64,000 nt of DNA from Escherichia coli. GTDB lineage: Bacteria > Pseudomonadota > Gammaproteobacteria > Enterobacterales > Enterobacteriaceae. Of the stretch, positions 25,657 through 48,040 are shown one piece after another. Each line of letters opens with the position of its first letter. Positions within the stretch are counted from its first letter, which is position 1. The position numbers and the translations under genes are program-made. Under the pieces are notes generated by a model. That model saw nothing but the letters and a program-made list of their open reading frames with translations, did not search any database and had not been told where the DNA came from. The DNA is taken from the NCBI RefSeq assembly GCF_044324875.1, contig NZ_CP172185.1, one strand, 5' to 3'.

Positions 25657-25725
25657 TCTGTATCTCCTTTGTGAGTGATCCAGCGTGTATTCTGCATACC
25701 CCGAACACGCCTCTCTCTTAACGCG

Positions 25726-25736
25726 CTTTAAAATCC
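25726..25736 (+). promoter_or_regulatory. late-promoter-like motif GCTTTAAAATC about 60 bp upstream of first late gene
   Basis: One of four related motifs at matching distances from late-operon starts. Confidence 0.35.
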
Positions 25737-25787
25737 TCCGCGCCACGCTTTTGCCATGCTGTCTCCACACAACAAGGAGACATTTTC

Positions 25788-26138
25788 ATGAAACCATTCA
25801 CTTCCCTTATCGTTGACGTACAAAAAACCCGCCTGCGTGGATGGCTTGTTGCGGCCGTGCTGCTGCTCCTCATCATCGCGCTGGTCTCACCCCAGCAGTT
25901 GCCGGTGGTGGTGTACAAGCTCTCTCTCATCTCCCTCGCCGCCGTGCTCGGCTACTGGCTGGACCGCTCACTCTTCCCGAAGGCCCGTCCGGGGCAGTAC
26001 CTGAAGCATGACGAGCGCCTCATGGCTGAGGGGCGCTGGCCCGTACAGACCGGCCTTCACCTGGTGTTTTCTGCTGCGTTAATCCGCCGTGCACTGATTG
26101 TTGCAGCTGTCTGTCTGGCTGTTGCGATGGGGCTTTAA
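25788..26138 (+). CDS. putative holin / lysis membrane protein
   Basis: 116-aa ORF with two or three TM segments immediately upstream of the endolysin. Confidence 0.5.
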   Translation: MKPFTSLIVDVQKTRLRGWLVAAVLLLLIIALVSPQQLPVVVYKLSLISLAAVLGYWLDRSLFPKARPGQYLKHDERLMAEGRWPVQTGLHLVFSAALIRRALIVAAVCLAVAMGL

Positions 26139-26140
26139 TC

Positions 26141-26875
26141 ATGAACTGGCCACAGAGCACCTGGATTGTATGCATGTCCCTGAAACTGGCTTTCGAAGCC
26201 TTTCTGGTCTTCATCAGAACCGAACGCCTGTCAGTCCGTGTCGGGACCTTTCTGGTTCATATGGCATGGGTATTCTTTGTCGCAATGTTGCTCTGGTGTG
26301 GCGGCTTCTTCAGTCAGGCCCGCGCAGCGCAGCCTCCGCAGGCTGCGCTGCAGTATCGCGATGATGTGATCCGTAATGCCCGGCTTGAATGGGGGCTGTC
26401 TGCGCCGGTGGCCGATTTCGCCGCGCAACTGCATCAGGAAAGCGGCTGGCGGACTGATGCGGTCTCGCCGGTGGGCGCTCAGGGGCTGGCGCAGTTTATG
26501 CCCGCCACCGCTGACTGGATAAGCCAGTTGATGCCGGCGTTGAGCAGTCGTGAGCCGTTTAATCCGGCATGGGCCATCCGGGCGCTGGTCAGCTATGACC
26601 GCTGGCTGTGGCAGCGCATCAGCGCCGCCAGTGACTGCGAGCGTATGGCCATGACACTGTCGGGCTATAACGGTGGTCTGGGTTGGGTACAACGGGACAG
26701 GCGGCTCGCATCACAGAAAGGTCTGGACAGCACCCGCTGGTTCGGACATGTCGCCACGGTGAATGCCGGACGCAATGCTGCCAGCTGGCGGGAGAACCGC
26801 CATTATCCGCAGCGCATCCTGCACGAACTGGCCCCCCGTTATCTGACATGGGGGGGCGGCAGCTGTGTGGACTAA
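26141..26875 (+). CDS. lytic transglycosylase endolysin (SLT domain), probable signal-anchor (SAR) type
   Basis: SLT catalytic region HQESGWR...GAQGLAQFMPATA; hydrophobic N-terminal segment. Confidence 0.75.
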   Translation: MNWPQSTWIVCMSLKLAFEAFLVFIRTERLSVRVGTFLVHMAWVFFVAMLLWCGGFFSQARAAQPPQAALQYRDDVIRNARLEWGLSAPVADFAAQLHQESGWRTDAVSPVGAQGLAQFMPATADWISQLMPALSSREPFNPAWAIRALVSYDRWLWQRISAASDCERMAMTLSGYNGGLGWVQRDRRLASQKGLDSTRWFGHVATVNAGRNAASWRENRHYPQRILHELAPRYLTWGGGSCVD

Positions 26876-27167
26876 CCTGCTAAAAAATCTGCCGTGGCGC
26901 AGTCTGCTGCTGGCAGTGCTCATAAATGCTTTTCTGATTGGACTTTATTACCTGGGCTACAAAAGTGCAAAATGGCATCTGAATCGATCGCAGTTTGGCA
27001 TTCGAATCGATCATGATTTGGCATCCATCTCCGATCACAGTTTGGCATCACAATCGATCACGATTTGGCATGCTTCCGATCATTGATTGGCATCCTGCCA
27101 GTCACTCCGGGAATTAACTCTTTTCACCACAGTCTCCATTGCCGTGTTTAAACCAGTGGAGACGTCA

Positions 27168-28733
27168 ATGTCCAGAAAGAGAAAATCCAGGAGCACTATG
27201 GAAACCTGTTTTAAGATCCTTCAGCTCAAGTTCGACAAGAAGCTGACTAACCGTTGTATCGGACTGACGTTACACATCAGCGCCTCAACCGTTTTTGAGG
27301 TTCTTGCCCGCTTCAAAGCCTCTTCTCTGTCATGGCCATTACCTGCTGATATATCCCATGACACGCTGGAGAAACTCATTTTTCCGCCCAAAGACACCTT
27401 TGCATCAGAGCTTGTAATGCCTGACATGTTGTACTTCGATACGGAAATGAGAAAACCAGGTGTGACGCGGCAACTGTTGTGGATGGAATACAAGGCACAG
27501 GCGGGTAACAAAGCGATGGGATACTCGCACTTCTGCCGTTGCTACCGGGAGTGGAAAAAAACGCGACGTCTCTCCATGCGCCAGGAGCATCGTGCCGGCG
27601 AAAAGCTTTTTATCGACTTCTGTGGTCCTACGGTTCCTGTTATTAATCCGGACACCGGTGAGATACGCCGCGTGGCAATCTTCGTGGCCGTAATGGGGGC
27701 GTCCAACTATACCTACGTTGAAGCGTGCGAAGGTCAGGACATGATGTCATGGTTAAATGCCCACAGCCGTTGCCTGACCTTCCTGGGCGGCGTACCGAAG
27801 CTGCTCATCCCCGATAACCTCAGAAGCGCAGTGAAAAAGGCCGATCGATATGAGCCTGTCATCAACGACAGTTATCAGGCACTGGCTGAGCACTATGGCA
27901 CGGTTATCATCCCGGCCCGACCACGCAAACCTAAAGATAAACCAAAAGCAGAAAACGGCGTCCTCATCGTTGAACGATGGCTTCTTGCCCGCATCCGTAA
28001 TGAAACCTTCCACACGCTCAGGGCGCTGAATGCGCGCCTTAGGGAGTTACTGACAGACATGAATAACCGGCCAATGAAGGGGTACGGCAATCAAACCCGT
28101 GCAGAACGCTTCCGCATACTGGATGCGCCAGCACTCTCTCCGCTGCCTCTGGCACCTTATGAATACACGGAATACAAAGCTGTGAAGGTTGGCCCTGACT
28201 ACCACGTTGAATATGCCCGTCACTGGTACTCCGTTCCACACGAACTGGTCGGTCAGCGTCTGTCACTGAAGGCGGGGCAGTCGGTGGTACAGCTCTGGCA
28301 CAAGGGGCAGTGTGTGGCGCAACATCCGCGCAGCACACATGAATATAAACACACAACCAATCCGCTTCACATGCCAGAGCGCCACCGGCAGCACGGGACA
28401 TGGACACCGGAACGCCTGATCGAGCAGGGAAAACGTACGGGCCCGTCCACAGGCCGGGTGGTTGAATCCATGCTGAAGGCAAAACCCCATCCGGAACTGG
28501 CTTATCGTGCAGTTCTGGGGCTGCTGGCACTTCAGAAAAAATACGGCCCGGAACGGCTGGAAAAGGCCTGTTACGTTGCCCTGCACTATAACGCCCCTGA
28601 CAGACGCTTTATCGACAATCTGCTGCGTCACCATCGGGAGAACCTGGAGCTTCCATTATCCCGCCAGGGCGAACAACATCCGGCATATGCTTCAGAGCAT
28701 GAAAACCTGCGTGGTCCGGGCTACTACCACTGA
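27168..28733 (+). CDS. istA: IS21-family transposase IstA
   Basis: N-terminal HTH plus DDE core (FIDFCGP ... IPDNLRS ... VERW); start uncertain (27087 TTG to 27198 ATG). Confidence 0.8.
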   Translation: MSRKRKSRSTMETCFKILQLKFDKKLTNRCIGLTLHISASTVFEVLARFKASSLSWPLPADISHDTLEKLIFPPKDTFASELVMPDMLYFDTEMRKPGVTRQLLWMEYKAQAGNKAMGYSHFCRCYREWKKTRRLSMRQEHRAGEKLFIDFCGPTVPVINPDTGEIRRVAIFVAVMGASNYTYVEACEGQDMMSWLNAHSRCLTFLGGVPKLLIPDNLRSAVKKADRYEPVINDSYQALAEHYGTVIIPARPRKPKDKPKAENGVLIVERWLLARIRNETFHTLRALNARLRELLTDMNNRPMKGYGNQTRAERFRILDAPALSPLPLAPYEYTEYKAVKVGPDYHVEYARHWYSVPHELVGQRLSLKAGQSVVQLWHKGQCVAQHPRSTHEYKHTTNPLHMPERHRQHGTWTPERLIEQGKRTGPSTGRVVESMLKAKPHPELAYRAVLGLLALQKKYGPERLEKACYVALHYNAPDRRFIDNLLRHHRENLELPLSRQGEQHPAYASEHENLRGPGYYH

Positions 28734-28749
28734 CAGAAGGAACAACAGT

Positions 28750-29505
28750 ATGAGTGATAACCTGTTAAACAAACTGACCCAACTGAAACTCCCGGCGATG
28801 GCCGGGAGCCTGATACGGCAGCGGGAAACGCCTCAGACCTACGACGAACTGTCGTTCGAGGAAAGGCTGACGCTGCTGGTTGATGACGAGCTTCTGAGCA
28901 GGGAAAACAGCCGTGTGGCACGGTTGAGAAAAAATGCCGGCCTGAAATACCAGGCAACACCGGAAGGGCTGCGCTATCCGGCCTCAAGAGGTCTGCGGGC
29001 TGAACAGATGAGAGAACTGCTGAACGGCCACTACATAACCCACAGGAAAAACCTGCTGATAACCGGTCCGACAGGATGTGGCAAGAGCTGGATAGCCAAT
29101 GCGCTGGGCGAACAGGCATGTCGACAGAAACACAGCGTCCGGTACTGTAGAACCGGGCGATTACTGGAACAACTGGCTCAGGGACGTGTTGATGGCAGCT
29201 GGCTGAAATATCTGAAACAGTTGCAAAAAATACAGGTTCTAATCCTGGACGATCTGGGGCTGGAACAGTTAAGTAACGCCCAGTGTAATGACCTTCTGGA
29301 GCTCATAGAGGATCGTTACGGACAAAGCAGCACGATAGTGGTAAGCCAGTTCCCGGTAGATAAATGGCATGGTCTGATGGAGAACCCAACAACAGCAGAT
29401 GCCATCCTGGACAGACTGGTACATAACTCACACCGAGTGGTCCTTCAGGGAGAGTCACTGAGGAAAAATCCCCCGGTAGTGGAAAGCAGCGAAAAAACGC
29501 GTTAA
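28750..29505 (+). CDS. istB: IS21-family helper ATPase IstB
   Basis: 251-aa ORF with Walker A GPTGCGKSWIA; ATG at 28750 a few bp after istA stop. Confidence 0.85.
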   Translation: MSDNLLNKLTQLKLPAMAGSLIRQRETPQTYDELSFEERLTLLVDDELLSRENSRVARLRKNAGLKYQATPEGLRYPASRGLRAEQMRELLNGHYITHRKNLLITGPTGCGKSWIANALGEQACRQKHSVRYCRTGRLLEQLAQGRVDGSWLKYLKQLQKIQVLILDDLGLEQLSNAQCNDLLELIEDRYGQSSTIVVSQFPVDKWHGLMENPTTADAILDRLVHNSHRVVLQGESLRKNPPVVESSEKTR

Positions 29506-29856
29506 AAAGCGGTAGAAAAAGTTAAGTTCCCGGTTGATCGAATGGATGCGAATCGCTGATCGGACTTCGATGCCAATCCGTGATCGAATAGAGCGGAATA
29601 CGCAAAAGCGGGCATGAAAACGCCACGCGCGACGGCGATAAGGCGATCAGTGAGTTGCAGTCAGCATTCGACACATACAAAACGGAGCAGGCAATGCTTG
29701 AGAACGCTGCATTGCGAGCATGGGCAAAACGGTATCAGGAGCAGGTGGCCGCTGGGCAGCAGGCTGAGGCCGGTTATCTTGAGCAGATTGCTCAACTGGA
29801 GAGTCAGAACAAACAACTACAGGGGCAAATTAACGATGTCACACAGCGCTGGATTG

Positions 29857-30123
29857 ATGAAAAAGGTAAGAGCCATCCCATTGAGTGCGTGTTTACTCGC
29901 GGTTTCGTGCGCCAGTACAACGCCGCACTCGGGTATGACAACGCATCCGTCGACACCGGTCATTCAGACTCAGTTGCCGCCACTGGCACCCGCTCTGGCA
30001 CAGCGACCGGGCAACCTGAAACCACTGACACCCGGTTACGCGATTCGGGTGTCTCCCAGCGTGACGTTCTCGCCAACATCATCGACAACGCAGGACAATG
30101 TCGTCGCTGGCGGAACCAGATAA
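29857..30123 (+). CDS. Rz1-like o-spanin lipoprotein embedded in the Rz frame
   Basis: MKKVRAIPLSACLLAVSCAST lipobox followed by Pro-rich mature region, wholly inside the Rz C-terminal coding region in another frame. Confidence 0.5.
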   Translation: MKKVRAIPLSACLLAVSCASTTPHSGMTTHPSTPVIQTQLPPLAPALAQRPGNLKPLTPGYAIRVSPSVTFSPTSSTTQDNVVAGGTR

Positions 30124-30157
30124 ACGCGTTGCTGGATGAACGGGAAGGATTACAGAA

Positions 30158-30484
30158 ATGACACTGCAGGTTGAATTCTGGACGGTGGTGGGCTTTCTCA
30201 TCACCTTCATGAGCTTTGTTGGCGGTATGGCCAAATGGCTGTTCAGTAAAGCGGAGGAACGTCAGGCTGCACGTTTTGCCTCTCTTGAGCAGTCACTGCA
30301 GCAGTCCGCCTCCAGTTGGGGCGAGCTGGAAAAAGAATTGATGCGATTTAAAGCGGATTTACCGCTGAATTATGTCCGTCGCGAGGATTATATCCGTGGC
30401 CAGACAGTCATCGAGGCCAAACTGGACGCGCTTTACAACAAACTGGAAGTGGTACAGCAGTACCGCAATACCGGAGGTCAATAA
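30158..30484 (+). CDS. hypothetical late protein with N-terminal TM (108 aa)
   Basis: ORF overlapping Rz stop. Confidence 0.45.
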   Translation: MTLQVEFWTVVGFLITFMSFVGGMAKWLFSKAEERQAARFASLEQSLQQSASSWGELEKELMRFKADLPLNYVRREDYIRGQTVIEAKLDALYNKLEVVQQYRNTGGQ

Positions 30485-30795
30485 TGGTCGATATTACCCG
30501 GGTACGCCGTGAATCCCTGCGCTGGAGTCTGCTGGTTGCCCTTAACAAAACCCGCCCTTACACCGCCAGCGAGACGCTGCTGCTGGAAGTGTCCCGCGCC
30601 ATCTACCCGGACACCACGCAACTGGAACTGCGCCGTGAGCTTGATTACCTGGCAGATCGCAAAATGGTGGAACTGGAGAGGAGACCGTCCGGTGACTGGT
30701 TTGCCGATCTGAGTCGCCTTGGTGTGGATATTGTGGAATACACCGTGGAATGCGGCCCCGGTATTGCCCGCCCGGAAAAATACTGGAGTGAGTGA
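30484..30795 (+). CDS. hypothetical late protein (103 aa)
   Basis: ORF; start overlaps upstream stop. Confidence 0.45.
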   Translation: MVDITRVRRESLRWSLLVALNKTRPYTASETLLLEVSRAIYPDTTQLELRRELDYLADRKMVELERRPSGDWFADLSRLGVDIVEYTVECGPGIARPEKYWSE

Positions 30796-31340
30796 TTATG
30801 GGACGTCGCAGCAGCATTGATTCTCTGCCGAAGGAGGTCCGTCGCTGGCTTGAGCGGGCACTGACGGAGAATAATTTCACCGGCTATGCAGAGCTTGAAA
30901 GTCTGTTGAAGGAAAAGGGGTACAGCATCACCCGCTCTTCCCTGCAGCGGTTTGGCTACAAAATGGAGCAGCAACTGGCCCGTGTGCGGGCGGCAACCGA
31001 GGCAGCGCGTCTGCTTGCCCGGGAGGCCGGAGACGATCCTGATGACCGTTCAGCCGGACTGATAACCCTCGTCCAGACCGAAATGACGGATATCCTGATG
31101 CGCCTGCAGGAGTCGCGGGAAAACGACGATCCCTTCGCCCGGGCAAAACTGCTGGCAACGGCTTCAAAAAATATCGCCACACTGACCCGCGCCTCGGTCA
31201 ACCTCAAGCGCTATCAGGCAGAAGTCAGAGAGAGGGTTGAACGTGCTGCCGCTGCCGCCGAGAAAATTGCCCGTAAGGGCGGGCTCTCTGCGGAAGCCGT
31301 ACAGGCACTGCGCCGGGAAATTCTGGGGGTGGCGTCATGA
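30792..31340 (+). CDS. DUF3486-type protein (Mu gp27-like, putative small terminase)
   Basis: 182-aa ORF immediately upstream of large terminase; family recalled from memory. Confidence 0.55.
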   Translation: MIMGRRSSIDSLPKEVRRWLERALTENNFTGYAELESLLKEKGYSITRSSLQRFGYKMEQQLARVRAATEAARLLAREAGDDPDDRSAGLITLVQTEMTDILMRLQESRENDDPFARAKLLATASKNIATLTRASVNLKRYQAEVRERVERAAAAAEKIARKGGLSAEAVQALRREILGVAS

Positions 31341-32860
31341 CGGAGCTGCCGCCGCACATTCCTGACACCGCGAGTTATGAGACACCGCCGGTTCTGTTGC
31401 CTTACCAGCAGCGCTGGGTGGCAGATACCTCTCCGCTTAAGGTGATGGAAAAGAGCCGTCGTACCGGTATTACATGGGCTGAGGCATCCGATAACGTACT
31501 GACCGCAGCCTCTTCTGCGCCTGCAGGCGGGATGAATGTGTATTACATCGCCTATAACCAGGATATGACCGTCGAATACATTCAGGCGTGTGCGATGTGG
31601 GCGCGGGCATTCAACTATGCGGCCAGTGAAATTGAAGAAGGATTCTGGGAGGAGGACGACGACGATAAACACATCAGGACTTACACCATCAAATTTCCTG
31701 ACTCCGGCTTTCGCATTGTCGCGCTCTCCAGCCGCCCGTCTAACCTGCGTGGCCGTCAGGGTATTATTGTTATCGACGAAGCGGCGTTCCATGAGCAACT
31801 GGACGAACTGCTGAAAGCGGCGCTGGCGATGCTTATCTGGGGGGGCAAGGTACGCGTTATCTCCACCCATGACGGTGACGACAATCCATTCAGTACGCTT
31901 ATCGGAGATATCCGTGCCGGACGTCAGGGAGGCAGCGTACATCGCATCACTTTCCGGGAAGCCGTATCTGAGGGGCTGTTCCAGCGCGTTTGTCTGCGCA
32001 CCGGGAAGGAATGGTCGGAGGCATCCGAGCTGGCCTGGATGGCGTCGGTGTACAAATTCTACGGTGCCGGCGCATCCGAAGAGCTTGACTGTATTCCGGC
32101 CAACGGTGGCGGTGCCTGGCTGTCCCGTGCCCTGATAGAGTCCCGAATGTCCGCTGATACGCCAGTATTGCGTCTGACCTGCAAGGAAGGTTATGAACTG
32201 CTGTCTGATGAGGTTCGCTTCCACGAGACACAGGACTGGCTTGATGAGCATCTGAAACCCTTGCTGGAGGCACTCCCCACTGATGCCCGCTCTTTCCTGG
32301 GGCGCGACTTTGGTCGCAGCGGTGATTTGTCGGTGGACTATCCCCTGCTGCAGGAGAAGAACCTGGTACGACGCGTGCCATTCGTACTGGAGCTGCGTAA
32401 CGTGCCGTTCAGACAGCAGGAGCAAATCACCTGGTATCTGATGGATGGCCTGCCCGGTCTGCTGGGTGCAGCATTTGATGCCCGTGGTAATGGTGCCTAT
32501 CTGGCTGAATACGCCATGCAGCGCTACGGCTCCAGCCGGGTTCAGCAGGTGATGCCAACCGAAGGCTGGTACCGGGAGCATATGCCTCCGGTCAAAGCTG
32601 CACTGGAAGACGGTAACCTGCTGGACTTACCAAAAGATGAAGACACACTGGATGACCTGCGGGCCGTTCAGGTGGTGAACGGTGTCCCCCGCGTGCCGGA
32701 ACAACGCTCAAAAGCAAAGGCTGATGGTGGTAAACGCCACGGGGATTCAGCCATCGCACTGGCGCTGGCGTATTTCGCCAGCCGTGAAATTAACAAAGGG
32801 CCGGTGAAGGCAAGCTCACGACGTCGTCGTCAGGCGGCCCGTATGCTGGAGGGATTCTGA
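31337..32860 (+). CDS. terminase large subunit (Mu gp28-like)
   Basis: 507-aa ORF with IIVIDEAAF Walker B-like motif; precedes portal. Confidence 0.7.
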   Translation: MTELPPHIPDTASYETPPVLLPYQQRWVADTSPLKVMEKSRRTGITWAEASDNVLTAASSAPAGGMNVYYIAYNQDMTVEYIQACAMWARAFNYAASEIEEGFWEEDDDDKHIRTYTIKFPDSGFRIVALSSRPSNLRGRQGIIVIDEAAFHEQLDELLKAALAMLIWGGKVRVISTHDGDDNPFSTLIGDIRAGRQGGSVHRITFREAVSEGLFQRVCLRTGKEWSEASELAWMASVYKFYGAGASEELDCIPANGGGAWLSRALIESRMSADTPVLRLTCKEGYELLSDEVRFHETQDWLDEHLKPLLEALPTDARSFLGRDFGRSGDLSVDYPLLQEKNLVRRVPFVLELRNVPFRQQEQITWYLMDGLPGLLGAAFDARGNGAYLAEYAMQRYGSSRVQQVMPTEGWYREHMPPVKAALEDGNLLDLPKDEDTLDDLRAVQVVNGVPRVPEQRSKAKADGGKRHGDSAIALALAYFASREINKGPVKASSRRRRQAARMLEGF

Positions 32861-35158: not shown

Positions 35159-35160
35159 CA

Positions 35161-35619
35161 ATGGCTTCCGATAACCTGGTCAGTGTCACCATTAATGATA
35201 AATCCCTGCGCCGGAGCCTCCGTGCGCTGGATCTGGCTGCCACAGACATGGAGCCTGCGATGCGCAAAATCGCCGGAACCCTGCTGGCGGAAACACAGTT
35301 TAACTTTCTTGATGAGGGGCGTCCGGGGTGGATGCCCTCGCTGGCAGCGGAAGAACGTAACGGACAGACACTGCAGGATACCGGGCGTCTGATGGGGTCA
35401 GTATCAACCGAGCATGACGACCGGCAGGCTGTTGTGGGGACCAACGTTGTTTACGGTGCCATTCACCAGTTCGGGGGTAAAACGGGGCGTAATGAGTCTG
35501 TTGAACTTCCGGCCCGCCCGTTCCTGCCGGTGACGGAGGATGGAGAGCTACAGCCTGAAGTGGTAGTCCCCATCCTCGATACCATTGTCCGCCATCTTGA
35601 AGCAGCGGCCCGTCGCTGA
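35161..35619 (+). CDS. virion morphogenesis protein (Mu G-like)
   Basis: 152-aa ORF; position and size. Confidence 0.55.
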   Translation: MASDNLVSVTINDKSLRRSLRALDLAATDMEPAMRKIAGTLLAETQFNFLDEGRPGWMPSLAAEERNGQTLQDTGRLMGSVSTEHDDRQAVVGTNVVYGAIHQFGGKTGRNESVELPARPFLPVTEDGELQPEVVVPILDTIVRHLEAAARR

Positions 35620-35769
35620 GTTTTCTCTCTTCAGGCGGGTGATTTATCATTGCCAGCGAATGAGGGGCTGTATTACCTTTATAAAGGCTTTACAGCCTCT
35701 GTTTTATAACTGCCTCCGGTTCACCACATTGCTTTCCCTGTCCTTCTCCCCTGATGTTTTCTAAAGCAG

Positions 35770-35781
35770 ATTAAAATCGCC
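35770..35781 (+). promoter_or_regulatory. late-promoter-like motif GATTAAAATCGCC upstream of protease/scaffold gene
   Basis: Second instance of the shared motif, about 60 bp upstream of ATG 35834 in a 214-bp noncoding gap. Confidence 0.35.
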
Positions 35782-35833
35782 GGGCCCGCATTTCTCACAA
35801 ACTGTCTCCGACAACATAACGCGGGACAGCAAA

Positions 35834-36949
35834 ATGTCAGCCATTCACATTTTTAAAGCCGGTACTCATACCGATATGCACGGCAAAAAACTGCCGTTCA
35901 CGCCAGACGATCTTGCCGCCTGCGTGAAAGCCTATGACCCGTCCGTCCATGAAGCACCACTCGTGATTGGTCATCCCAGAACGGAAGACCCGGCGTGGGG
36001 CTGGGTGAAAGCCCTGTCGCTCAGCGGCGTCGATCTGATGGCAGAGCCTGCCCAGCTGGACCCGCAGTTTGCTGAGATGGTCACCGACGGACGATTCAAA
36101 AAAGTGTCTGCCTCTTTCTACCTCCCGGATTCACCGTCCAATCCGAAGCCCGGCGTGCTCTACCTGCGCCATGTGGGCTTTCTTGGGGCACAGCCACCTT
36201 CCGTCAAAGGACTGAAACAGGTGTCCTTCAGTGAGCAGGAAGAAGGTGTGGTGGAGTTCGCCGACTGGCAGGCCATCACGAATGCCTCACTGTGGGGAAA
36301 GCTGCGCGATTTTCTGATCGCCCGCTTCAGTCTGGACGAAGCAGAAAAAGTTCTGCCGGAATGGCAGCTCAACAGTCTGCGCGAAGAGGCGTACCGCGAC
36401 ACACCGTCGCAGGATGCAGCAGGTGCGCAATTCAGTGAGACAGGCCAGGTGCCGTCTTCCGCAAGTAACGAGGAATCATCGATGACAAAAGAAGAGATTG
36501 AAGCCCTTCAGGCGGAGAACCGCCGCCTGAAGCAGCAGGCTGCTGATCGCGATGCGCGTGATGCACAGGTCAGACAGGAGCAACTGCATAAGGACAATGT
36601 GGCCTTTGCAGAAAAACTGGTCGCAGAGGGCCGTCTGGCTCCCCGCGCCTCCTCCGTGGTGGTTGCCCTGCTGGATTCCGTCGCCGGTGGCGACAAGCCG
36701 GTGGAGTTTGCTGAGGGGGAAAGCCGCACACCGCTGGCCACCGCCTTCCGTTCGCTGCTCTCCGACGGGGAGCCGGTGATGAACTTCGCCGAACAGGCCA
36801 CGAAGGAGCGTGTCGGCGACACGGTGAAAGTGGATGTGACGGAGTTTGCAGAAGCCGACCCTGACCGTCTGGCACTGCACCAGAAGGCTGTGGAACTGTC
36901 GAAAAAAGAAGGCATCAGCTATGAGGCTGCTGTCACACGCTGCCTGTAA
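35834..36949 (+). CDS. head protease/scaffold protein (Mu I-like)
   Basis: 371-aa ORF with acidic coiled-coil C-terminus, directly before major capsid gene. Confidence 0.6.
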   Translation: MSAIHIFKAGTHTDMHGKKLPFTPDDLAACVKAYDPSVHEAPLVIGHPRTEDPAWGWVKALSLSGVDLMAEPAQLDPQFAEMVTDGRFKKVSASFYLPDSPSNPKPGVLYLRHVGFLGAQPPSVKGLKQVSFSEQEEGVVEFADWQAITNASLWGKLRDFLIARFSLDEAEKVLPEWQLNSLREEAYRDTPSQDAAGAQFSETGQVPSSASNEESSMTKEEIEALQAENRRLKQQAADRDARDAQVRQEQLHKDNVAFAEKLVAEGRLAPRASSVVVALLDSVAGGDKPVEFAEGESRTPLATAFRSLLSDGEPVMNFAEQATKERVGDTVKVDVTEFAEADPDRLALHQKAVELSKKEGISYEAAVTRCL

Positions 36950-36958
36950 GGAGAAAGC

Positions 36959-37912: not shown

Positions 37913-37922
37913 GGAGAAGTCT

Positions 37923-38258: not shown

Positions 38259-38259
38259 G

Positions 38260-40838: not shown

Positions 40839-41359
40839 TGTCAAAGATTGAGATAAACCGCATCACGAATGCCAACATCTATCTGGATGGTACTAACCTG
40901 CTGGGACGGGCTGAGGAAGTTAAACTCCCCGATGTCTCCATGATTATGCAGGAACACAAGGCGCTGGGGATGGTGGGTAAGGTGGAACTCCCGGCTGGTT
41001 TTGACAAACTGGAAGGCGAAATCAAATGGAACAGCTTTTACCGCGATGCGATGCTGTCTGCCGCGAACCCGTACAGGTCGCTGGCACTGCAGTGTCGTTC
41101 CAGCGTCCAGCGCTACAGCTCGCAGGGGCTGATTGACGAAATCCCGCTGGTCACCTTCCTGACGATTATGTTCAAGAAGAACCCGCTGGGGACGTTCAAA
41201 CAGCACGAGAACGCCGAGTTCTCCAGTAGCTTCACATGCACGTATATCAGACAGGTACTGGATGGTGAAGAGCTGCTGCAACTGGACTATCTGGCCAACA
41301 TCTTCCGGGTCGGCGGTGTTGATCAACTGACTGACTACCGTATCAATATCGGGGGCTGA
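40838..41359 (+). CDS. tail tube protein
   Basis: 173-aa ORF after sheath. Confidence 0.7.
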   Translation: MSKIEINRITNANIYLDGTNLLGRAEEVKLPDVSMIMQEHKALGMVGKVELPAGFDKLEGEIKWNSFYRDAMLSAANPYRSLALQCRSSVQRYSSQGLIDEIPLVTFLTIMFKKNPLGTFKQHENAEFSSSFTCTYIRQVLDGEELLQLDYLANIFRVGGVDQLTDYRINIGG

Positions 41360-41361
41360 CG

Positions 41362-41643
41362 GTGAGTGTTGAACTGACGGATAAAGGAGGACGATGTGCG
41401 GCACTGGGCATGTCAAATGGTACGTGGTTTACCCTCCTTGATATTCCGGGGGTGGAAACCCTTTTTAATACCCGTAAAACCAATGACCCGATTGACTGCA
41501 CACGTTCAAAGGCCCGCAGACTGGCGGATTTGATTGAAGCATGGGAGCCTCCCGACCACTGGTTCTCCGGCACCGGCAAATCTGAGGGAAAGACGCTTCT
41601 CATCGCTTTCCTGCGTAACTGCAAGGGGTTTCGCACTTGCTGA
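41362..41643 (+). CDS. hypothetical small protein (start uncertain)
   Basis: ORF with GTG start; weak translation signals. Confidence 0.3.
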   Translation: MSVELTDKGGRCAALGMSNGTWFTLLDIPGVETLFNTRKTNDPIDCTRSKARRLADLIEAWEPPDHWFSGTGKSEGKTLLIAFLRNCKGFRTC

Positions 41644-41677
41644 CATCACAGGGGCTCCGGCCCCTTCTTCTTAATCT

Positions 41678-41690
41678 CCTTTAATATCCG
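41678..41690 (+). promoter_or_regulatory. late-promoter-like motif CCTTTAATATCCG upstream of tail chaperone/tape-measure genes
   Basis: 11-mer CCTTTAATATC identical to the motif at 48029; preceded by GC hairpin plus T-tract at 41651-41672. Confidence 0.4.
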
Positions 41691-41740
41691 TCACGCGCTT
41701 CTCCCGACATACTGCCCTGAACTTACACAGGAGCACAATC

Positions 41741-42076
41741 ATGTCACAGACCCCATCCGATACTTTTAAATTGTCTTATCCCTTCACCACTGCTGCAGGC
41801 ACCAGAATTGAGCTGGTTGAACTGAAACGCCTGACGGTAAAAGACCTGAAGCAGGTGCGCAAAATCAGCAAAAACCCGGCAGACTGGGACGAACCGCTGA
41901 TTGCCCGCAGTACTGGTCTTCTCCCGGAAGATCTCGACAATATGGATCTGGCTGATTACCTGCAGTTACAGAAACGATTTCAGCTCATCACGGGGATGGG
42001 TGAGAGCGACAAAGGCGCTGACGCAGGCGCAGGGGCTGCTGGCGAGATGGTTCCGGTTTCAGCCGGGGGAGATTGA
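41741..42076 (+). CDS. tail assembly chaperone (gpE/gpG-like)
   Basis: 111-aa acidic ORF between tube and tape measure; overlapping ORF 41901..42158 in +1 frame. Confidence 0.5.
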   Translation: MSQTPSDTFKLSYPFTTAAGTRIELVELKRLTVKDLKQVRKISKNPADWDEPLIARSTGLLPEDLDNMDLADYLQLQKRFQLITGMGESDKGADAGAGAAGEMVPVSAGGD

Positions 42077-42233
42077 TGCCCTCGATACTGACGATCTGGA
42101 GATGTGGCTGGAGCAGGCTGAAGAGCAAATAAAAAGCGAGTACGGCGACAAATCATAGTACAGACAGCCGCCAGTAGCGGCTGTTCTGCGTTATCCCCTC
42201 ACGTCTTTTCACCTTCCCCGGAGGTTAACCACT

Positions 42234-45185
42234 ATGTCGGGACAGTTTTCAGTCGGCGTTGTTATCGGCGGGATGATTGGCAGCACATTCCGTTCTGCAA
42301 TGAGCGGTACCCGCCGTGCGCTTGATTCCCTGAGCGATACCTCACGCCGCCTGCAGGAACGTCAGAACGCTTTAACCCGTGCAACAGAACGTTATGGTCA
42401 ACTGGGCTCTTCCCGGATGCAGCATCTCAACAGCGAGCTGCTGCGGGTAAGCCGCACCATGGAGCAAATTGAGCGCCAGCAGCGCCGTCTGTCAGCGGCA
42501 TCAGCCACCAGTGATGCGCTGAAAGCTAACCGCATGGCGCTGTATGGTCAGGGGATTGAAGCGTATGGCATGGCACAGACTGTTTATCATACGGTTTCCC
42601 CTGCCGTTCAGCAGTCCATGTCTTTTCAGGACAAAATGATTGATATGTCGATCACCGCAAAATATGACAATAAAACGCGGGATGCACTTGCCGGACAGAT
42701 AAAAGGCTGGGCGCAAAAATACAATCAGTATCAGGATGAACTGCAGGAGGCGGTGGGTTCGCTCATCAGCGACAATATTGATAACTTGTCAGATATCGGT
42801 TTTCTGATGCCGGATATTGCCCGCGCGGCAACGGCAACACGCACGTCATCTCAGGACTGGGCAAAAGTGGCCGCAGTCTGGCAAAACTCCCTGAAAGGTG
42901 CGGCCAGAGATTTTAGTGCCGTCCAGAATATTATGGCTTATGCCGGTGACCAGGGGTCATTTGAAATCCCGGATCAGGTCAAGTGGATGCAGTCCCTGGC
43001 CCCAATGATGGCGGGTATTGCCAGTGGAAAAGAGGCTGTTGCTGAAATCGGGGCCAGTCTCCAGATAGCAAAAATCGGTGCGGGCTCCACCGACGAAGCA
43101 GCCAATAATTTTAAAAACTTTCTTACCAAAATTTTTGCCCGCGATACTCAGAAACAGTTTGCTGATCTGGGTATTGATTTGCAGGGTTCTGTTGCGAGTT
43201 ATAAGGCTGCGGGGATCTCTCCGATTGAAGGGATGTTGAGTGTTATAGAACGTTACCTCAATGCCAAAAGCCCCGAAGCGCTGGCCGGCTTCAAATCCGC
43301 CATGAAAATAAAGAATGATACGGCAAGAGATGAGGCACTTCAGGCTCTGGCGAAAAACTTTGGTCTGGGCGATATGTTCGCGGATATGCAGGTCATGGCA
43401 TTTATCCGCCCGATGCTGGCCAACATGGACAGATATCGCGAGATCCGTGCCGGTGCTCTCAGGGCTGCGGATAACGATTTGCTTGCCAGTGCTTACGATC
43501 AGCGGCTGAAATCTCCCCTTGAAGCCACTAAAGCGCTTATGGTCAGCAGTCGCGATCTGGCTATTACGCTGGGCGATCAGCTCGCCCCCTCTTTTATTTC
43601 TCTGACTCAGGAGCTGATCCCACTCATTCAGGGGGCAAAACACTGGGTGGCGACTCACCCGCAATTTGTCAGTGGGGCTTTTAAGCTCATCAGTGCGCTC
43701 CTTGCGATTAAGATAGCGACTGTTGGTCTCAAACTGGGGCTGAATCTCCTTATTTCCCCCTTTGTGAACGTCTGGAAAACTGCTGTTTTACTCCGGACCA
43801 ACTGGCATCGACTGACTACCGCACTAGGAGAAGGTGGCAAATTACGCTGGCTTGTCACTGGATTTAGCCGACTGACCAGCGGAGGACTGAAACTCAGCAA
43901 AGTTCTGGCGGGCAGCCTCGTTCGCGGTTTTATGAGCGCTGCACGTGCCGTTCTCTGGATTGGGCGAGCGCTGATGATGAATCCCATCGGTCTCGTTATC
44001 ACCGCTGTCGCGGCAGCAGCTTACCTTATCTACCGCAACTGGGGGACAGTCAGTGGCTGGTTTAAACAGCGCTGGGCTGACATTCAGGAAGCCTTTAACG
44101 GCGGTATCGCGGGAACTGGTAAGCTGCTGATTAACTGGTCGCCGGCAGGGCTGCTCTATAAAGCCTTTGCGGCTGCGCTGAAATATTTCGGCGTTGCTCT
44201 GCCGGCAAAGTTCACCGACTTCGGTGGCCATCTTGTCGACGGTCTGATTAACGGTATCAAAAACAAATGGGGGTCGCTCAAATCCAGTGTAACCGGAATG
44301 GGTGACAGCATCAGTAGCTGGTTTAAACAGTGCTGGTCTGACATTCAGGAGGCCTTTAACGGCGGTATCGCGGGAACTGGTAAGCTGCTGATTAACTGGT
44401 CGCCGGCAGGTCTGCTCTATAAAGCCTTTGCAGCTGCGCTGAAATATCTTGGTGTTGATCTGCCGGCAAAGTTCACCGACTTCGGTGGCCATCTTGTCGA
44501 CGGTCTGATTAACGGTATCAAAAACAAATGGGAGTCGCTCAAATCCAGTGTAACCGGAATGGGTGACAGCATCAGTGGCTGGTTCAGTGAAAAGCTGGGT
44601 ATTCATTCGCCGAGCCGCGTGTTTATGGGCTTTGGTGACAATATCGCGCAGGGGGCCGCCATTGGCCTGCAGCGGAGCACTCCGATTGCAGCTCTGGCCG
44701 GGCAGCGAATGGCCAGTGAACTGCTCCCCAGAATGCCCGTGAGCATTCAGGGGCCAGAAATACGGGATAACACTTCAGGTGTTCGCTTCAGTATGCCGTT
44801 GCCCGATATCAACGGGTTTATGTCGTCTGCTAAAAATGCGATCGGATCCGTAATCAATAGTTTGTCTTCCATGCCCGCTATTCCGATCTCCACCCGGGCA
44901 TCGACTTTACCAGGTCAACGTCTGGCAAATGAGATGACACCGGATGTTCCCCGTATCCCCTCGCCTGAAATCCTGGCTGCCGGATATTCAGGCCGTGGTG
45001 CAGCTGCAACCGGCGGTGGAACGTCTGGTGGTATCCAGGTCAGCTTTAATCCTCAGTTTTTCCTCAATGGCAGGGAAACCACAGCGCCTGCAGGACTGAC
45101 TGGTGCCCTGAATATGAGTCTGCATGAGCTGGAAAAAATGCTGGAGCGTCTGCTGGCTCAGAAACAACGTAAGGAGTACCGCTGA
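42234..45185 (+). CDS. tail tape measure protein
   Basis: 983-aa ORF with coiled-coil N-terminus, TM segments and internal tandem duplication. Confidence 0.8.
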   Translation: MSGQFSVGVVIGGMIGSTFRSAMSGTRRALDSLSDTSRRLQERQNALTRATERYGQLGSSRMQHLNSELLRVSRTMEQIERQQRRLSAASATSDALKANRMALYGQGIEAYGMAQTVYHTVSPAVQQSMSFQDKMIDMSITAKYDNKTRDALAGQIKGWAQKYNQYQDELQEAVGSLISDNIDNLSDIGFLMPDIARAATATRTSSQDWAKVAAVWQNSLKGAARDFSAVQNIMAYAGDQGSFEIPDQVKWMQSLAPMMAGIASGKEAVAEIGASLQIAKIGAGSTDEAANNFKNFLTKIFARDTQKQFADLGIDLQGSVASYKAAGISPIEGMLSVIERYLNAKSPEALAGFKSAMKIKNDTARDEALQALAKNFGLGDMFADMQVMAFIRPMLANMDRYREIRAGALRAADNDLLASAYDQRLKSPLEATKALMVSSRDLAITLGDQLAPSFISLTQELIPLIQGAKHWVATHPQFVSGAFKLISALLAIKIATVGLKLGLNLLISPFVNVWKTAVLLRTNWHRLTTALGEGGKLRWLVTGFSRLTSGGLKLSKVLAGSLVRGFMSAARAVLWIGRALMMNPIGLVITAVAAAAYLIYRNWGTVSGWFKQRWADIQEAFNGGIAGTGKLLINWSPAGLLYKAFAAALKYFGVALPAKFTDFGGHLVDGLINGIKNKWGSLKSSVTGMGDSISSWFKQCWSDIQEAFNGGIAGTGKLLINWSPAGLLYKAFAAALKYLGVDLPAKFTDFGGHLVDGLINGIKNKWESLKSSVTGMGDSISGWFSEKLGIHSPSRVFMGFGDNIAQGAAIGLQRSTPIAALAGQRMASELLPRMPVSIQGPEIRDNTSGVRFSMPLPDINGFMSSAKNAIGSVINSLSSMPAIPISTRASTLPGQRLANEMTPDVPRIPSPEILAAGYSGRGAAATGGGTSGGIQVSFNPQFFLNGRETTAPAGLTGALNMSLHELEKMLERLLAQKQRKEYR
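44058..44590 (+). repeat. 240-bp tandem duplication inside tape measure gene (two full units plus start of a third)
   Basis: Protein repeat WFKQ(R/C)W(A/S)DIQEAFNGGIAGTGKLLINWSPAGLLYKAFAAALKY... occurs twice 80 aa apart. Confidence 0.7.
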
Positions 45186-46069
45186 TGTTTGCCGTACTGG
45201 GTGATATTGAGTTTGATCTGATTACCTACTGGGACGGCTTCGAGGCCACGTTCGGCGTCGATTATGCGGAGCATGCCCGCATCGGGGGTAAGCCTGGCCT
45301 GCAGTTCGTCGGCGACAGGCTGGACGAAATCCAGATAAGTCTGGTCTTCCATCAGCATTATTGTGCACCCGATGTGGAGCTGGCGAGACTGCGAACAACC
45401 ATGAAAGCCCATCAGGCACTGGCGCTGGTCTTCGGCAACGGTGACTATCGTGGCTGGTTCGTGATTACCGATGTGACCGCAACCAGCGAGCAGACAGACA
45501 GCACCGGTAACGTGCTGGCTGTCAGTGCCACCGTGTCTCTCCGGGAATACACCGGTGATCCGAAAAATCCTCTGCAACCACCGGCAATACGCACGAAGCT
45601 CCCGGGTGTCGGGGCGGTCTCCGGTGCCATTCCTTCACCTTCAGGGGTGGCGCAGTTCATCCGCAACGGCGTCAACTATGCGAAACAGGCGCAGTCTGTA
45701 CTCCAGACCACTATCAGCGCCGTTCGGGTGACACAGAAAATGAAGGATAACCCCGTTGTCGCACTGACCCGTGTGCCGGGGCTGATGAGCGGACTGGGTA
45801 ATATCTCCGGGGCTCTGGGGAAAAGTGTTCCGGCGTTTAACGCACTCTCTGAATCCATGCCCGATGCCATCAGTCTGGCCAGAACAGCCAGCGAAGCAGC
45901 CACGTATGTACAGCAGGCACAGTCTGCGCTGAGTGGTGTGGACAAAAGAAATATTGCAGGTGCTCTGGATACCGTTTCCGGGCAGCTTAACGCCGCCAGC
46001 ACAGCATTCAACCGCATGTCTCCGGGATTAAGTGCAATGGCCGCCAGAATACTGACGAGGAGTGTGTGA
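45185..46069 (+). CDS. tail protein (Mu N / DNA-circularisation-like)
   Basis: 294-aa ORF directly after tape measure; assignment by order. Confidence 0.5.
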   Translation: MFAVLGDIEFDLITYWDGFEATFGVDYAEHARIGGKPGLQFVGDRLDEIQISLVFHQHYCAPDVELARLRTTMKAHQALALVFGNGDYRGWFVITDVTATSEQTDSTGNVLAVSATVSLREYTGDPKNPLQPPAIRTKLPGVGAVSGAIPSPSGVAQFIRNGVNYAKQAQSVLQTTISAVRVTQKMKDNPVVALTRVPGLMSGLGNISGALGKSVPAFNALSESMPDAISLARTASEAATYVQQAQSALSGVDKRNIAGALDTVSGQLNAASTAFNRMSPGLSAMAARILTRSV

Positions 46070-46281
46070 TGTTTCTTGAACATGTTACCCGTGACGGAGA
46101 GCGCTGGGATTCGCTGGCATGGCAGTACTACGGTGACCCGCTGGGCTATCCCCGGATTATTGCCGCCAATCCGCACGTGGCCATCACGCCGGTGCTGCCC
46201 TCCGGGCTGTTGTTACTGATCCCGGTGATTGAGGCTGAAGAAGCCCGTACAGAAGAGGATATTGCCCCATGGCTGAGATAA
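46066..46281 (+). CDS. small tail protein (P2 gpX-like)
   Basis: 71-aa ORF in P2/Mu-type tail gene order. Confidence 0.45.
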   Translation: MMFLEHVTRDGERWDSLAWQYYGDPLGYPRIIAANPHVAITPVLPSGLLLLIPVIEAEEARTEEDIAPWLR

Positions 46282-47423
46282 ACAGCACTGCGCAAGTCAC
46301 TTCAGCGTTAACCAGCGTCAGCGATGTGCTGACACCGGTGTTCACTCTGTGGTATCTGCAGAAAAACATCACCTCTGATATCGCGCCTTATGTCACCCGT
46401 GTGACCTGGAGCGATAACATCAAAAATGAGTCCGATACCATTGAGGTGGAGCTGGACGACACCGATGGCCGCTGGCTGGATAAGTGGTATCCGGGCAAGG
46501 GTGACACGCTGACGCTGAAAATGGGCTATCAGGGCGAGAAGCTGCTGTCCTGCGGTACGTTCTCTATAGACGAGATCGAAGTGAGTTCGCCCGCTTCCGT
46601 TGTTTCTATCCGTGGGGTGGCCACCTCGGTTAACAGTGCTCTGCGGACTAAAACCAGTCGTGGTTTTGAGAACACCACGCTGGCAGCTGTTGCGGGGCGG
46701 ATTGCCAGAAAGCACCGACTGAAACTGGTGGGCAGCATTGAGTCCATCAGAATCGACCGGGTGACCCAGTATGCTGAAACCGACGTGGGTTTTCTGCGCC
46801 GGCTGGCCAGCGAGTATGGTTATGCAGTGAAAGTGGTCAGTGACCAGCTGATTTTTTCTCATCTGGCCACACTGCGCAGTCAGGAGCCGGTCAGGCAGTT
46901 AAAACCGCAGGATGTGGCCCGCTTTTCCCTGCGTGACACCATCAACCGGGTCTATAAATCTGCAAAGGTAAAACACCAGAAAAGCAGCAGTAAAAAACTG
47001 ATCGTCTACGAAGCTGATGGTGGTACCCGTGAAAGCGACAAAAAGCTCAAAGGTGGTAAGGTTACCAGCGCTGACTCACTTAAAGTTAACAGCCGCGTCA
47101 GCGACCCGGACAGTGCCCGGATTAAAGCGGATTCAGCACTGGCCAGACATAACGAATACCAGCAGAACGGCTCCCTGACGCTGACGGGAACACCTCAACT
47201 GACAGCAGGCAACAAAATTGAACTGGTGGGTTTTGGGCAGTTATCCGGGCCATGGCTCATAACCACTGCCCGCCATGCGTTTGACCGTAACAGCGGCTAC
47301 ACCACAGAGCTGGAAGTGGCACGGGGGCCAGTCACAAGAGGGAAAAAACAAAAAACTCAGAAACTCACGGTTTATCACCCGGATGGCAGTACATCGACGG
47401 TGATTAAGGAGAAGAAAAAATGA
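46269..47423 (+). CDS. tail protein (P2 gpD / Mu P-like)
   Basis: 384-aa ORF; size and order. Confidence 0.55.
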   Translation: MAEINSTAQVTSALTSVSDVLTPVFTLWYLQKNITSDIAPYVTRVTWSDNIKNESDTIEVELDDTDGRWLDKWYPGKGDTLTLKMGYQGEKLLSCGTFSIDEIEVSSPASVVSIRGVATSVNSALRTKTSRGFENTTLAAVAGRIARKHRLKLVGSIESIRIDRVTQYAETDVGFLRRLASEYGYAVKVVSDQLIFSHLATLRSQEPVRQLKPQDVARFSLRDTINRVYKSAKVKHQKSSSKKLIVYEADGGTRESDKKLKGGKVTSADSLKVNSRVSDPDSARIKADSALARHNEYQQNGSLTLTGTPQLTAGNKIELVGFGQLSGPWLITTARHAFDRNSGYTTELEVARGPVTRGKKQKTQKLTVYHPDGSTSTVIKEKKK

Positions 47424-48016
47424 CTGGTGTCACTCGTCAGGTCGGTACGGTCAGTGCCGTTGATGCCGACAGGGTTCAGGCCCGCGTTCGTCTGCCTGAA
47501 TGCGATAACCTGCGCACAAACTGGCTTAACGTGCTGCAGCGCAATACCCAGGATAACAAAGATTACTGGCTCCCTGACGTGGGGGAGCAGGTTGAGGTGC
47601 TGCTCGATGCCAACGGCGAGGATGGTGTTATTCTGGGCGCGGTGTATTCAGACGTCGATAAACCACCGTTCAGTGACAAAAATATCCGGGGAACCCGGTT
47701 TGCTGATGGTGCAGAGTACAGCTACAACCGGAAGACGCACACTCTGACCATCCGGGGCGGCATTGAGCATATTGTCATTGAGTGTGGTGCTGATGTGGTA
47801 TTGAAAACACAGAAAGCCACGATTGACGCACCGGAAACCGAACTTACCGGAGATCTGCGTGTCAGGGGAAAGCTGATTTACGAAGGAGGCATGGCGGGTT
47901 CTGGTGGTAAAGGTGTTACCGCGACCATCCATGGCAATATCGAGATTAAAGGGAATGCCCATGCCACGGGCAGTATGCTGTCTGATGGCGAAAACTCCAG
48001 CCACCACTCCCACTGA
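47420..48016 (+). CDS. baseplate spike protein (gpV-like)
   Basis: 198-aa ORF with Gly-rich, His-rich C-terminus. Confidence 0.6.
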   Translation: MTGVTRQVGTVSAVDADRVQARVRLPECDNLRTNWLNVLQRNTQDNKDYWLPDVGEQVEVLLDANGEDGVILGAVYSDVDKPPFSDKNIRGTRFADGAEYSYNRKTHTLTIRGGIEHIVIECGADVVLKTQKATIDAPETELTGDLRVRGKLIYEGGMAGSGGKGVTATIHGNIEIKGNAHATGSMLSDGENSSHHSH

Positions 48017-48028
48017 GCTTCTTAAACG

Positions 48029-48040
48029 CCTTTAATATCA
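48029..48040 (+). promoter_or_regulatory. late-promoter-like motif CCTTTAATATCA upstream of baseplate genes
   Basis: Shared 11-mer; followed by hairpin GGGGGCA-ATAC-TGCCCCC at 48053-48070 abutting the ATG. Confidence 0.4.

Follow-up and report, generated by a model that had tools for sequence, protein, structure and literature searches.

Which regulator switches on the late genes of a Mu-like prophage that encodes a Mor-family protein and no homolog of the late activator C? This question is raised by a BcepMu-type (Bcepmuvirus-like) transposable prophage located at positions 13282–53653 of a 64-kb stretch of the Escherichia coli chromosome (contig NZ_CP172185.1; hereafter, the window). Its early genes, encoding a Ner-like regulator, a DDE transposase, a B-like ATPase, Gam, GemA and, last, the Mor-family protein, are directed leftward (minus strand). 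The late genes are directed rightward, starting with the holin gene at 25788, and are densely packed apart from four gaps. No other intergenic gap in the late region is as large, and each of the four contains one copy of a shared motif. These motifs are probably operators of a single Mor-family activator, which together with weak -10 hexamers would form activator-dependent sigma-70 promoters of the late units. Direct observations cover the promoter architecture, the conservation of this architecture, and only one Mor/C-family gene.

The gaps lie on the plus strand upstream of the genes for the holin (25788), the I-like protease/scaffold (35834), the gpE-like tail chaperone (41741) and the gpW-like baseplate protein (48071). 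The original prediction placed four related motifs at the heads of the late units, and all four were present there. The coordinates were exact for the third and fourth copies (41678–41690 and 48029–48040); the first two were one base off and correspond to GCTTTAAAATCC at 25725–25736 and GATTAAAATCGCC at 35769–35781. The motifs begin 62, 64, 63 and 42 bp before the respective start codons. Assignment of the motifs to the heads of four units is upheld by their location on one strand and in the late gaps, the fixed distance to a hexamer, the absence of a -35 element, and conservation at orthologous gaps.

A search of both window strands for the core TTAAWATC gave exactly four matches, namely the four motif sites, all on the late strand. 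The chance expectation is 2.5, so that the bare count of four is not above chance, unlike the placement and extended architecture of the sites. The pattern TAA-N6-TTAAWATC occurred four times exactly and six times with at most one mismatch, against 0.98 expected. The full unit at the four sites consists of (C)TTAA-N6-TTAAWATC, exactly 19 nt, and a weak -10 hexamer followed by G (MAWRCTG). The hexamers are CATGCT, CAAACT, CATACT and AATACT in P1 to P4, with A2 and T6 kept in all of them. The 5-bp inverted repeats (C)TTAA and TTAA(W), surrounding a mostly G/C-rich hexanucleotide, make up a dyad of 17–19 bp. The motif alone is only half of this dyad, to which the complete promoter unit adds the -10 hexamer. 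The distance between the dyad centre and the hexamer is 30.5 bp at all six sites predicted in this work (P1–P4 and two minus-strand sites described below), and if the start-site spacing is as mapped at the Mu promoter Pm, the dyad would be centred near -43.5. At P1–P4, the best match to a -35 element was 2–3 of 6 positions with spacings of 15–19 tried, and a scan for consensus sigma-70 -35/-10 pairs found no promoter on the late strand at these sites. A sigma-28-type promoter (TAAA-N15-GCCGATAA) and the Ogr-type element of phage P2 were ruled out at the late sites upon reading their sequences.

The P1 box of the lysis/packaging unit, CTTAA-CGCGCT-TTAAAATC, occupies 25717–25735 (dyad centre 25724.5) and is conserved in the phages PhiKM, KP12 and Phi06_2974B and in relatives from the IMG/VR database. 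Its hexamer CATGCT (25755–25760) is preceded by TGc, and the predicted start is at about 25767–25768, upstream of the holin ATG at 25788. The P2 box, TCTAA-AGCAGA-TTAAAATC (35760–35778), heads the head protease/capsid/sheath unit and is flanked by the G-like and I-like genes, the position that P_I has in Mu; the hexamer CAAACT is at 35798–35803 and the ATG at 35834. The P3 box of the unit running from the tail chaperone and tape measure to gpV, CTTAA-TCTCCT-TTAATATC, is located at 41670–41688, with the hexamer CATACT at 41708–41713 and the ATG at 41741. The P4 box, CTTAA-ACGCCT-TTAATATC (48021–48039), precedes the baseplate W-J-I/tail fibre unit, and its hexamer AATACT (48059–48064) lies within an inverted repeat in the region 48053–48073. 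All these elements are on the plus strand.

The original prediction also described terminator-like hairpins before two of the sites. One of them is good, namely AGGGGCTCCGGCCCCT followed by TCTTCTT at 41650–41665 (plus strand), which ends unit 2 and directly abuts the P3 box; BcepMu has an equivalent hairpin. The candidates on the P2 side (35685–35698 and 35603–35618) are weak. The same G-to-I intergenic region contains the palindrome CTTTATAAAG at 35677–35686 (within CCTTTATAAAGG, 35676–35687), about 85 bp upstream of the P2 box and near the prophage midpoint. It is unique in the window (0.05 expected) and occupies the same position in every enterobacterial relative as well as in Pseudomonas phage Komp_PAO1_1. 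The central strong gyrase site of Mu is also in the G-I gap (annotated at 17879 in the Mu record), and by this analogy the palindrome is possibly its equivalent.

For comparison, relatives were gathered via the major capsid protein: PhiKM, Klebsiella KP12, Phi06_2974B, Burkholderia BcepMu, Pseudomonas Komp_PAO1_1, Pasteurella AFS-2018a and Ralstonia YO107_2; Mu was also included. A position weight matrix was trained only on the 13 non-enterobacterial sites, from the Burkholderia, Pseudomonas, Pasteurella and Ralstonia phages, with 200 shuffled windows as the background (maximum score 17.1, mean 8.3). P1–P4 scored from 17.8 to 34.3, all above the shuffle maximum. Over 128 kb of strand, the top seven hits were P2 (34.3), a minus-strand site at 24510 designated P-dam (28.0), P1 (24.2), P-left, the minus-strand reading of the P1 dyad (21.4), P4 (19.1), a plus-strand site in host DNA at 3154 (18.1), and P3 (17.8). 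Thus, all six predicted promoters were among the top seven hits and exceeded the shuffle maximum. The host hit (3154–3199, plus strand) reads TTAACCGCATTGAAAAA ... GAACAT, lies just over the best shuffle and is most likely due to chance.

A search of the relatives with TAA-N6-TTAAWA gave late-strand hits at the orthologous gaps and hardly any others. The pattern is present at all four orthologous gaps of KP12, Phi06_2974B and PhiKM. The 40-kb genome of Komp_PAO1_1, with 63% GC, contains it exactly four times, one per gap; Pasteurella AFS-2018a has four copies on the late strand, Ralstonia YO107_2 three, and BcepMu two exact and two degenerate sites. Alignment of 24 sites showed no variation in the box or at hexamer positions 2 and 6 (A2, T6), and no conservation of the 19-nt spacer sequence. 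In 53 IMG/VR relatives, many of which are closely related, so that the counts are not independent, the late strand gave 103 hits, 97 of them with xAxxxT at the fixed spacing; a hexamer accompanied 1 of the 28 hits on the opposite strand. In an IMG/VR clade with 73% identity, the spacers have been rewritten with the box and hexamer retained. The strict box was not found upstream of the protease gene in the more distant IMG/VR relatives L048–L058, where other dyads are present, and the consensus is therefore clade-specific. The dyads upstream of the head-protease gene in L048, L049/L051 and L052–L056, which have 35–50% protease identity, are GGAA(C)-N4-(G)TTCC, CAAAGTGCTTTG and TTCCGTTTT...AAAACGGAA. 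These dyads, combined with a hexamer-in-loop layout that the distant relatives keep (described below), suggest that activator/operator pairs co-evolve on a fixed promoter scaffold. The searched literature, including papers on KS10 and Pseudomonas Mu-like phages and not covering that on the BcepMu genome, contained no description of such promoters.

An antisense unit of a box, 19 nt and a hexamer (TAAGACAATTTAAAAGT, CATGAT) was noticed inside the 5' end of the gpE-like gene, from 41764–41778 to about 41731 on the minus strand, pointing back into P3. It is kept in PhiKM, KP12 and Phi06, where this sequence is coding; BcepMu, Komp and Pasteurella lack it. The unit is probably a chance occurrence or a clade-specific antisense start.

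The nearest known counterpart is Mu Pm. The Mor operator of this promoter comprises 16 bp, with two 5-bp inverted repeats separated by a G/C-rich hexanucleotide, and extends from -51 to -36 around a centre at -43.5; G at -57, T at -56 and adenines at -55 to -53 lie upstream (PMC4390567; PMC4287176). The Mu sequence upstream of gp18 reads ...GTAAAC AGTAA AGCCGG TTAAT CCGgctttttttacgtcctcaa TATCCT..., and mapping of AGTAA-AGCCGG-TTAAT onto Pm reproduces the published positions, with TATCCT at -13 to -8. The distance from the Pm box to TATCCT is 19 nt, counted from the 17-nt box frame including the next three bases, CCG. Pm and the window sites share the half-sites xxTAA and TTAAx, a 6-bp spacer, equal centre-to-hexamer distances of 30.5 bp, the lack of a -35 element, and an activator of the PF08765 family encoded at the end of the early operon. 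In Pm, a hairpin with a T-run, located after mor, overlaps the operator, comparable to the hairpin that abuts the P3 box. The BcepMu box TAAAGCCGATTAA differs from the Pm box TAAAGCCGGTTAA by one base. On the contrary, MuC sites have the bipartite form TTAT-N5-6-ATAA (PMC12867686), and Pmom in the Mu sequence reads TTATgccccaATAA. The window sites, which read TTAA-N6-TTAA, do not follow this pattern. Since the half-sites and spacing of Pm are matched and the MuC pattern is not, the window sites are assigned to Pm-type operators. They differ from Pm in that the box is extended to TTAAWATC. Moreover, Mor of Mu drives one promoter, yielding C, whereas the window has four to six late promoters and no C.

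The original prediction had noted a Mor-like protein and no C homolog and had left the activator unnamed. A tblastn search with Mu Mor and C found one homologue in the window, the RefSeq-annotated gene at 14393–14791 (minus strand), which ends the early operon as its last regulatory gene, and no second Mor/C-family copy. Its product matches Pfam Mor (PF08765) over the full length (E=1.3e-43) and PHROG 532, 'late transcriptional activator'. A Mor/C-family gene is thus present in the same genome as the boxes. The protein has the family core GG..Y.P, a C-terminal helix-turn-helix and a C-terminal QxxLF; residues G53, G54, Y58, P60, F78, G80, N82, E85, L86, Y98 and Q113 are invariant in the alignment with Mu Mor and C. 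In the Mor/C family, QxxLF is described as a beta-clamp-binding motif with the consensus QPDLF (PMC12867686), and QGRLF at residues 113–117 resembles such a motif. The recognition helix ELARKFGVSLQWVY is almost invariant among the Mor-like proteins of phages sharing the box, which are 43–52% identical overall; its residues VSLQWVY correspond to VTFNTVY in Mu Mor and LSQPQIY in C. This protein is the probable binder of the late boxes, and the activator may be named: as predicted from the Pm-type site and the sole Mor/C gene, it is likely the single Mor-like protein.

The proposed mechanism is modelled on the action of Mor at Mu Pm: the activator would be made at the end of the early operon and bind the dyad in dimeric form. 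It would replace the missing -35 contact via sigma-70 region 4 and the alpha C-terminal domain, thereby recruiting RNA polymerase. Mor contacts these two parts of the polymerase at Pm (PMC4287176), and a 2025 preprint proposed tetrameric binding to A and B sites (10.1101/2025.05.02.651988). The result would be a two-tier cascade from early to late genes without the middle Mor-to-C step of Mu. A single Mor/C gene combined with Pm-type sites makes such a one-step cascade without a separate C the best reading. We infer binding, activation and the start sites of the late promoters from the Mu system. The six predicted promoters would serve lysis/packaging (P1), head (P2), tail tube-to-V (P3) and baseplate (P4) genes, and the two leftward units of P-left and P-dam. 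Transcription is predicted to begin near 25767/8 (P1), 35810/1 (P2), 41720/1 (P3), 48071 (P4), 25682/1 (P-left, minus strand) and 24462/1 (P-dam, minus strand).

The regulon probably comprises six promoters rather than four. The P1 dyad is nearly symmetrical, so its minus-strand reading gives a second promoter-like unit, P-left (25689–25732, minus strand): TTTAA-AGCGCG-TTAAGAGA, 19 nt, and the hexamer CAGAAT (25694–25689). The hexamer is followed by a 32-nt leader with a Shine-Dalgarno sequence and the ATG of gene 25656..25108 (minus strand). It is kept in PhiKM (CAGGAT) and KP12 (CAGAAT) despite a diverged 19-nt spacer. The two genes in between are missing from Phi06_2974B and L038–L040/L043, where the mirrored dyad points straight at the Dam-methylase leader. 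The second site, P-dam (24469–24512, minus strand), consists of CCTAA-ACCACA-TTAACAGA, 19 nt, and the hexamer CATCAT (24474–24469). Its box (24512–24494) is placed upstream of the Dam methylase gene 24322..23558 (minus strand), directly past the stop of gene 24730..24515. Equivalents with a hexamer at 19–20 nt were found in KP12 (24960, plus strand), Phi06 and L037–L043. The position of P-dam recalls Mu mom, a DNA-modification gene under late activator control.

The predicted leader of about 140 nt between P-dam and the Dam ATG (24322) contains a perfect 11-bp stem, CCAGCCCGGTG / CACCGGGCTGG, at 24428–24458 (minus strand). In KP12 and Phi06_2974B, this stem persists with a single mismatch. By a loose analogy with the mom/Com leader of Mu, it may have a regulatory role as an RNA structure. 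A degenerate box located past the stop codon of mor (14381, TTAAAGTCCTTTCAAAAATC) was not counted, being within the shuffle range with a score of 10.3 and overlapping the early terminator. Its placement recalls that of Mu Pm directly after mor. The box is followed by a strong terminator, GCACGGT...ACCGTGC with T7 (region past the mor stop, 14312–14381, minus strand), and further downstream by the left-end gene 14278–13646 (PHROG 12870), which has no assigned function.

In comparison with Plys, PI, PP and Pmom, which drive late transcription in Mu, and their activator C, the prophage also has a predicted regulon of four late promoters, in which a -10 hexamer occurs without a -35 and the dyad would be centred near -43.5. 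P1 and P2 are at the map positions of Plys and PI, and a DNA-modification gene apparently belongs to the regulon in both cases (mom in Mu, Dam in the window). The unit boundaries in the tail region are different, since the tail genes of the window are P2-like, with promoters before the gpE-like and gpW-like genes. The analogy with the activator-dependent late regulon of Mu, drawn in the original prediction, is supported by the architecture and by the conservation at orthologous gaps. The P2-like tail and baseplate genes are, as in phages P2 and 186, split among late operons without a -35, which in the prophage are predicted to be activator-dependent. In P2/186, a zinc-finger protein (Ogr/B/Delta) binds the late element TGT-N12-ACA, whose centre is near -55; neither this element nor an Ogr-like gene was seen in the window, as read by eye only.

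Several points weigh against the proposed regulon. The -10 hexamers are weak, with 3–4 of 6 consensus matches. P3 is barely above the best shuffle (17.8 vs 17.1), the host site at 3154 outside the prophage, with 18.1, scores near it, and single sites scoring about 18 can be attained by chance. The activator protein is approximately equidistant from Mu Mor (31% identity) and MuC (35%). These values leave the choice undecided; typing of the activator by protein identity was therefore dropped, and the label 'Mor-type' is taken solely from the DNA site. Finally, an IS21-family insertion in late unit 1, described below, means that this prophage copy may not be inducible.

Other explanations were weighed against the same observations. 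If the boxes are real sites of another binder, the Mor-like protein would act elsewhere, and the binder could be one of the regulators encoded at 22451–22765 and 22812–23000, GemA, or host IHF or Fis. The A/T-rich box and the several further helix-turn-helix proteins encoded by the prophage are compatible with this possibility. However, the box shares half-sites, spacer length and -10 distance with the footprinted Mor operator of Pm, and the recognition helix of the Mor-like proteins is co-conserved with the box over five host genera. Host factors, moreover, vary among Pasteurella, Pseudomonas, Burkholderia and E. coli, while the box is constant. We therefore regard another binder as unlikely. 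It is still less probable that the sites are ordinary constitutive or UP-element-assisted sigma-70 promoters with the TTAA repeats as an A/T-rich UP element. The box does sit where a proximal UP subsite could lie, and P1 has a TGn extended -10, but a -35 is missing, the hexamers match the consensus at only 3–4 of 6 positions, and the dyad is conserved base for base, beyond mere A/T-richness. Constitutive holin and late promoters would also be lethal in a lysogen.

The sites might, alternatively, not be promoters at all. Structural or other DNA sites (for packaging, nucleoid or gyrase binding, or as a transposition enhancer), or an A/T-rich coincidence, would agree with the count of the bare 8-mer, four vs 2.5 expected, which is within chance. 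Such roles are hardly credible in view of the strict strand bias, the location of every site in an intergenic region directly upstream of a gene block, the fixed spacing to a hexamer with A2 and T6 in the 24 aligned sites and 97 of 103 metagenomic hits, and the independent matrix scores exceeding all shuffles. Operators of a Mor-family activator thus remain the preferred explanation. The regulation would then be of a known kind, Mor/C-dependent promoters of the Pm type, newly spelled out for BcepMu-type prophages.

Another regularity concerns RNA structure around the predicted starts. The hexamer regions of 17 promoters from five lineages (including the L004, L005, L006 and L008 equivalents) were folded as read-through RNA and compared with shuffles. 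The six nucleotides separating the hexamer from the predicted start had a mean pairing probability of about 0.92, with at least 0.56 at every site, against 0.46 +/- 0.25 for the same segment in shuffles. No pairing enrichment was observed in these 17 promoters for the hexamer itself or for more distant positions. The folding energy is -12 to -37 kcal/mol for read-through transcripts vs about 0 to -14 for those from the predicted +1.

At every predicted late promoter, this discriminator segment, which would itself not be transcribed from the promoter and is often joined by part of the hexamer, makes up one hairpin arm. The hairpins are of two forms. In the first, the partner arm is the Shine-Dalgarno sequence, as in P1–P3 of the window and P1–P3 of the Pasteurella phage, whose sequences are unrelated. 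The P1 inverted repeat (25761–25781, plus strand) pairs GTCTCC at 25761–66, between the hexamer and predicted +1, with the Shine-Dalgarno GGAGAC at 25776–81. These arms are invariant across 13 sequence variants in which the loop and flanks vary. The inverted repeats of P2 (35802–35810 / 35822–35829) and P3 (41713–41719 / 41728–41735), also on the plus strand, retain pairing in their variants by wobble changes or a register shift. In the second form, the hexamer lies in the loop of a GC-rich stem, and an ATG follows 6–8 nt past the hexamer without a Shine-Dalgarno sequence. P4 has this form in all lineages, as do several promoters in the phages of the GC-rich hosts Burkholderia, Ralstonia and Pseudomonas. 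At P4 of the window, the arms GGGGGCA (48053–59) and TGCCCCC (48064–70) form the plus-strand arrangement GGGGGCA-ATAC-TGCCCCC-ATG, and the ATG at 48071 starts at the seventh nucleotide after the hexamer. The same layout is present in KP12, BcepMu, Komp_PAO1_1, Pasteurella and Ralstonia, and distant metagenomic relatives with other activator dyads keep the hexamer-in-loop arrangement followed by ATG.

Since the predicted P4 start is the ATG itself and a Shine-Dalgarno sequence is missing, a leaderless gpW mRNA is predicted. The cI mRNA of lambda transcribed from PRM is a leaderless phage mRNA. P4 resembles this case in that its predicted start is the A of ATG without a Shine-Dalgarno sequence, and differs in heading a late structural operon instead of a repressor gene. 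Tentatively, the hairpins could act as a translational gate: read-through transcripts would be folded and poorly translated, while activator-started ones, lacking one arm, would be open or leaderless. Under such a gate, expression of the holin and of each unit's leading gene would be tied to the activator at two levels. Other possible roles are in RNA processing or stability, or effects on melting at the DNA level. If functional, the hairpin and leaderless regularity would insulate lethal late genes from read-through transcription in the lysogen.

The results provide an operator consensus, (C)TTAA-N6-TTAAWAKC, 19 nt, xAxxxT, and a promoter map for BcepMu-type prophages, which are frequent in E. 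coli, where at least 80% of the late region of the window prophage is present in 242 of 5,426 complete genomes. Relatives occur in Klebsiella, Burkholderia, Pseudomonas, Ralstonia and Pasteurella. The findings suggest that late genes in the BcepMu branch are generally switched on through a Pm-like operator of the Mor type and that the Mor-to-C relay of Mu is an elaboration. The map allows the expression timing of lysis, virion and Dam-methylase genes to be predicted, and the compact activator-dependent promoters could be used in synthetic designs.

The remaining features concern the prophage as a whole. In the early region, the DDE transposase gene is located at 19421–21190 (minus strand). The prophage is 99.98% identical to that of E. 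coli PKF4, which is integrated at another chromosomal site and lacks a 2,637-bp insertion present in the window at 26966–29602, with 6 bp duplicated at the junction. The inserted sequence encodes an IS21-family IstA transposase (27087–28733) and the IstB helper ATPase (28507–29505). It disrupts the gene following the endolysin gene in late unit 1, upstream of the terminase genes, and thereby probably makes this prophage copy defective or polar for packaging. Copies free of the insertion are present in PKF4 (NZ_CP156662) and also in E. coli MS1494. Within the prophage, an Rfam scan gave no match to a known RNA family; on its right side, host DNA matched the enterobacterial small RNA STnc550 at 58322–58712 on the minus strand (396 bits). 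The tail-fibre gene (50080–51798) contains internal tandem repeats of about 300 bp in the region 50314–51162. Inverted copies at 51332–51546 and 52722–52939 flank oppositely oriented tail-fibre/chaperone genes beside a Gin-like invertase gene (52874–53575), and this region looks like an invertible host-range segment, as in the G segment of Mu.

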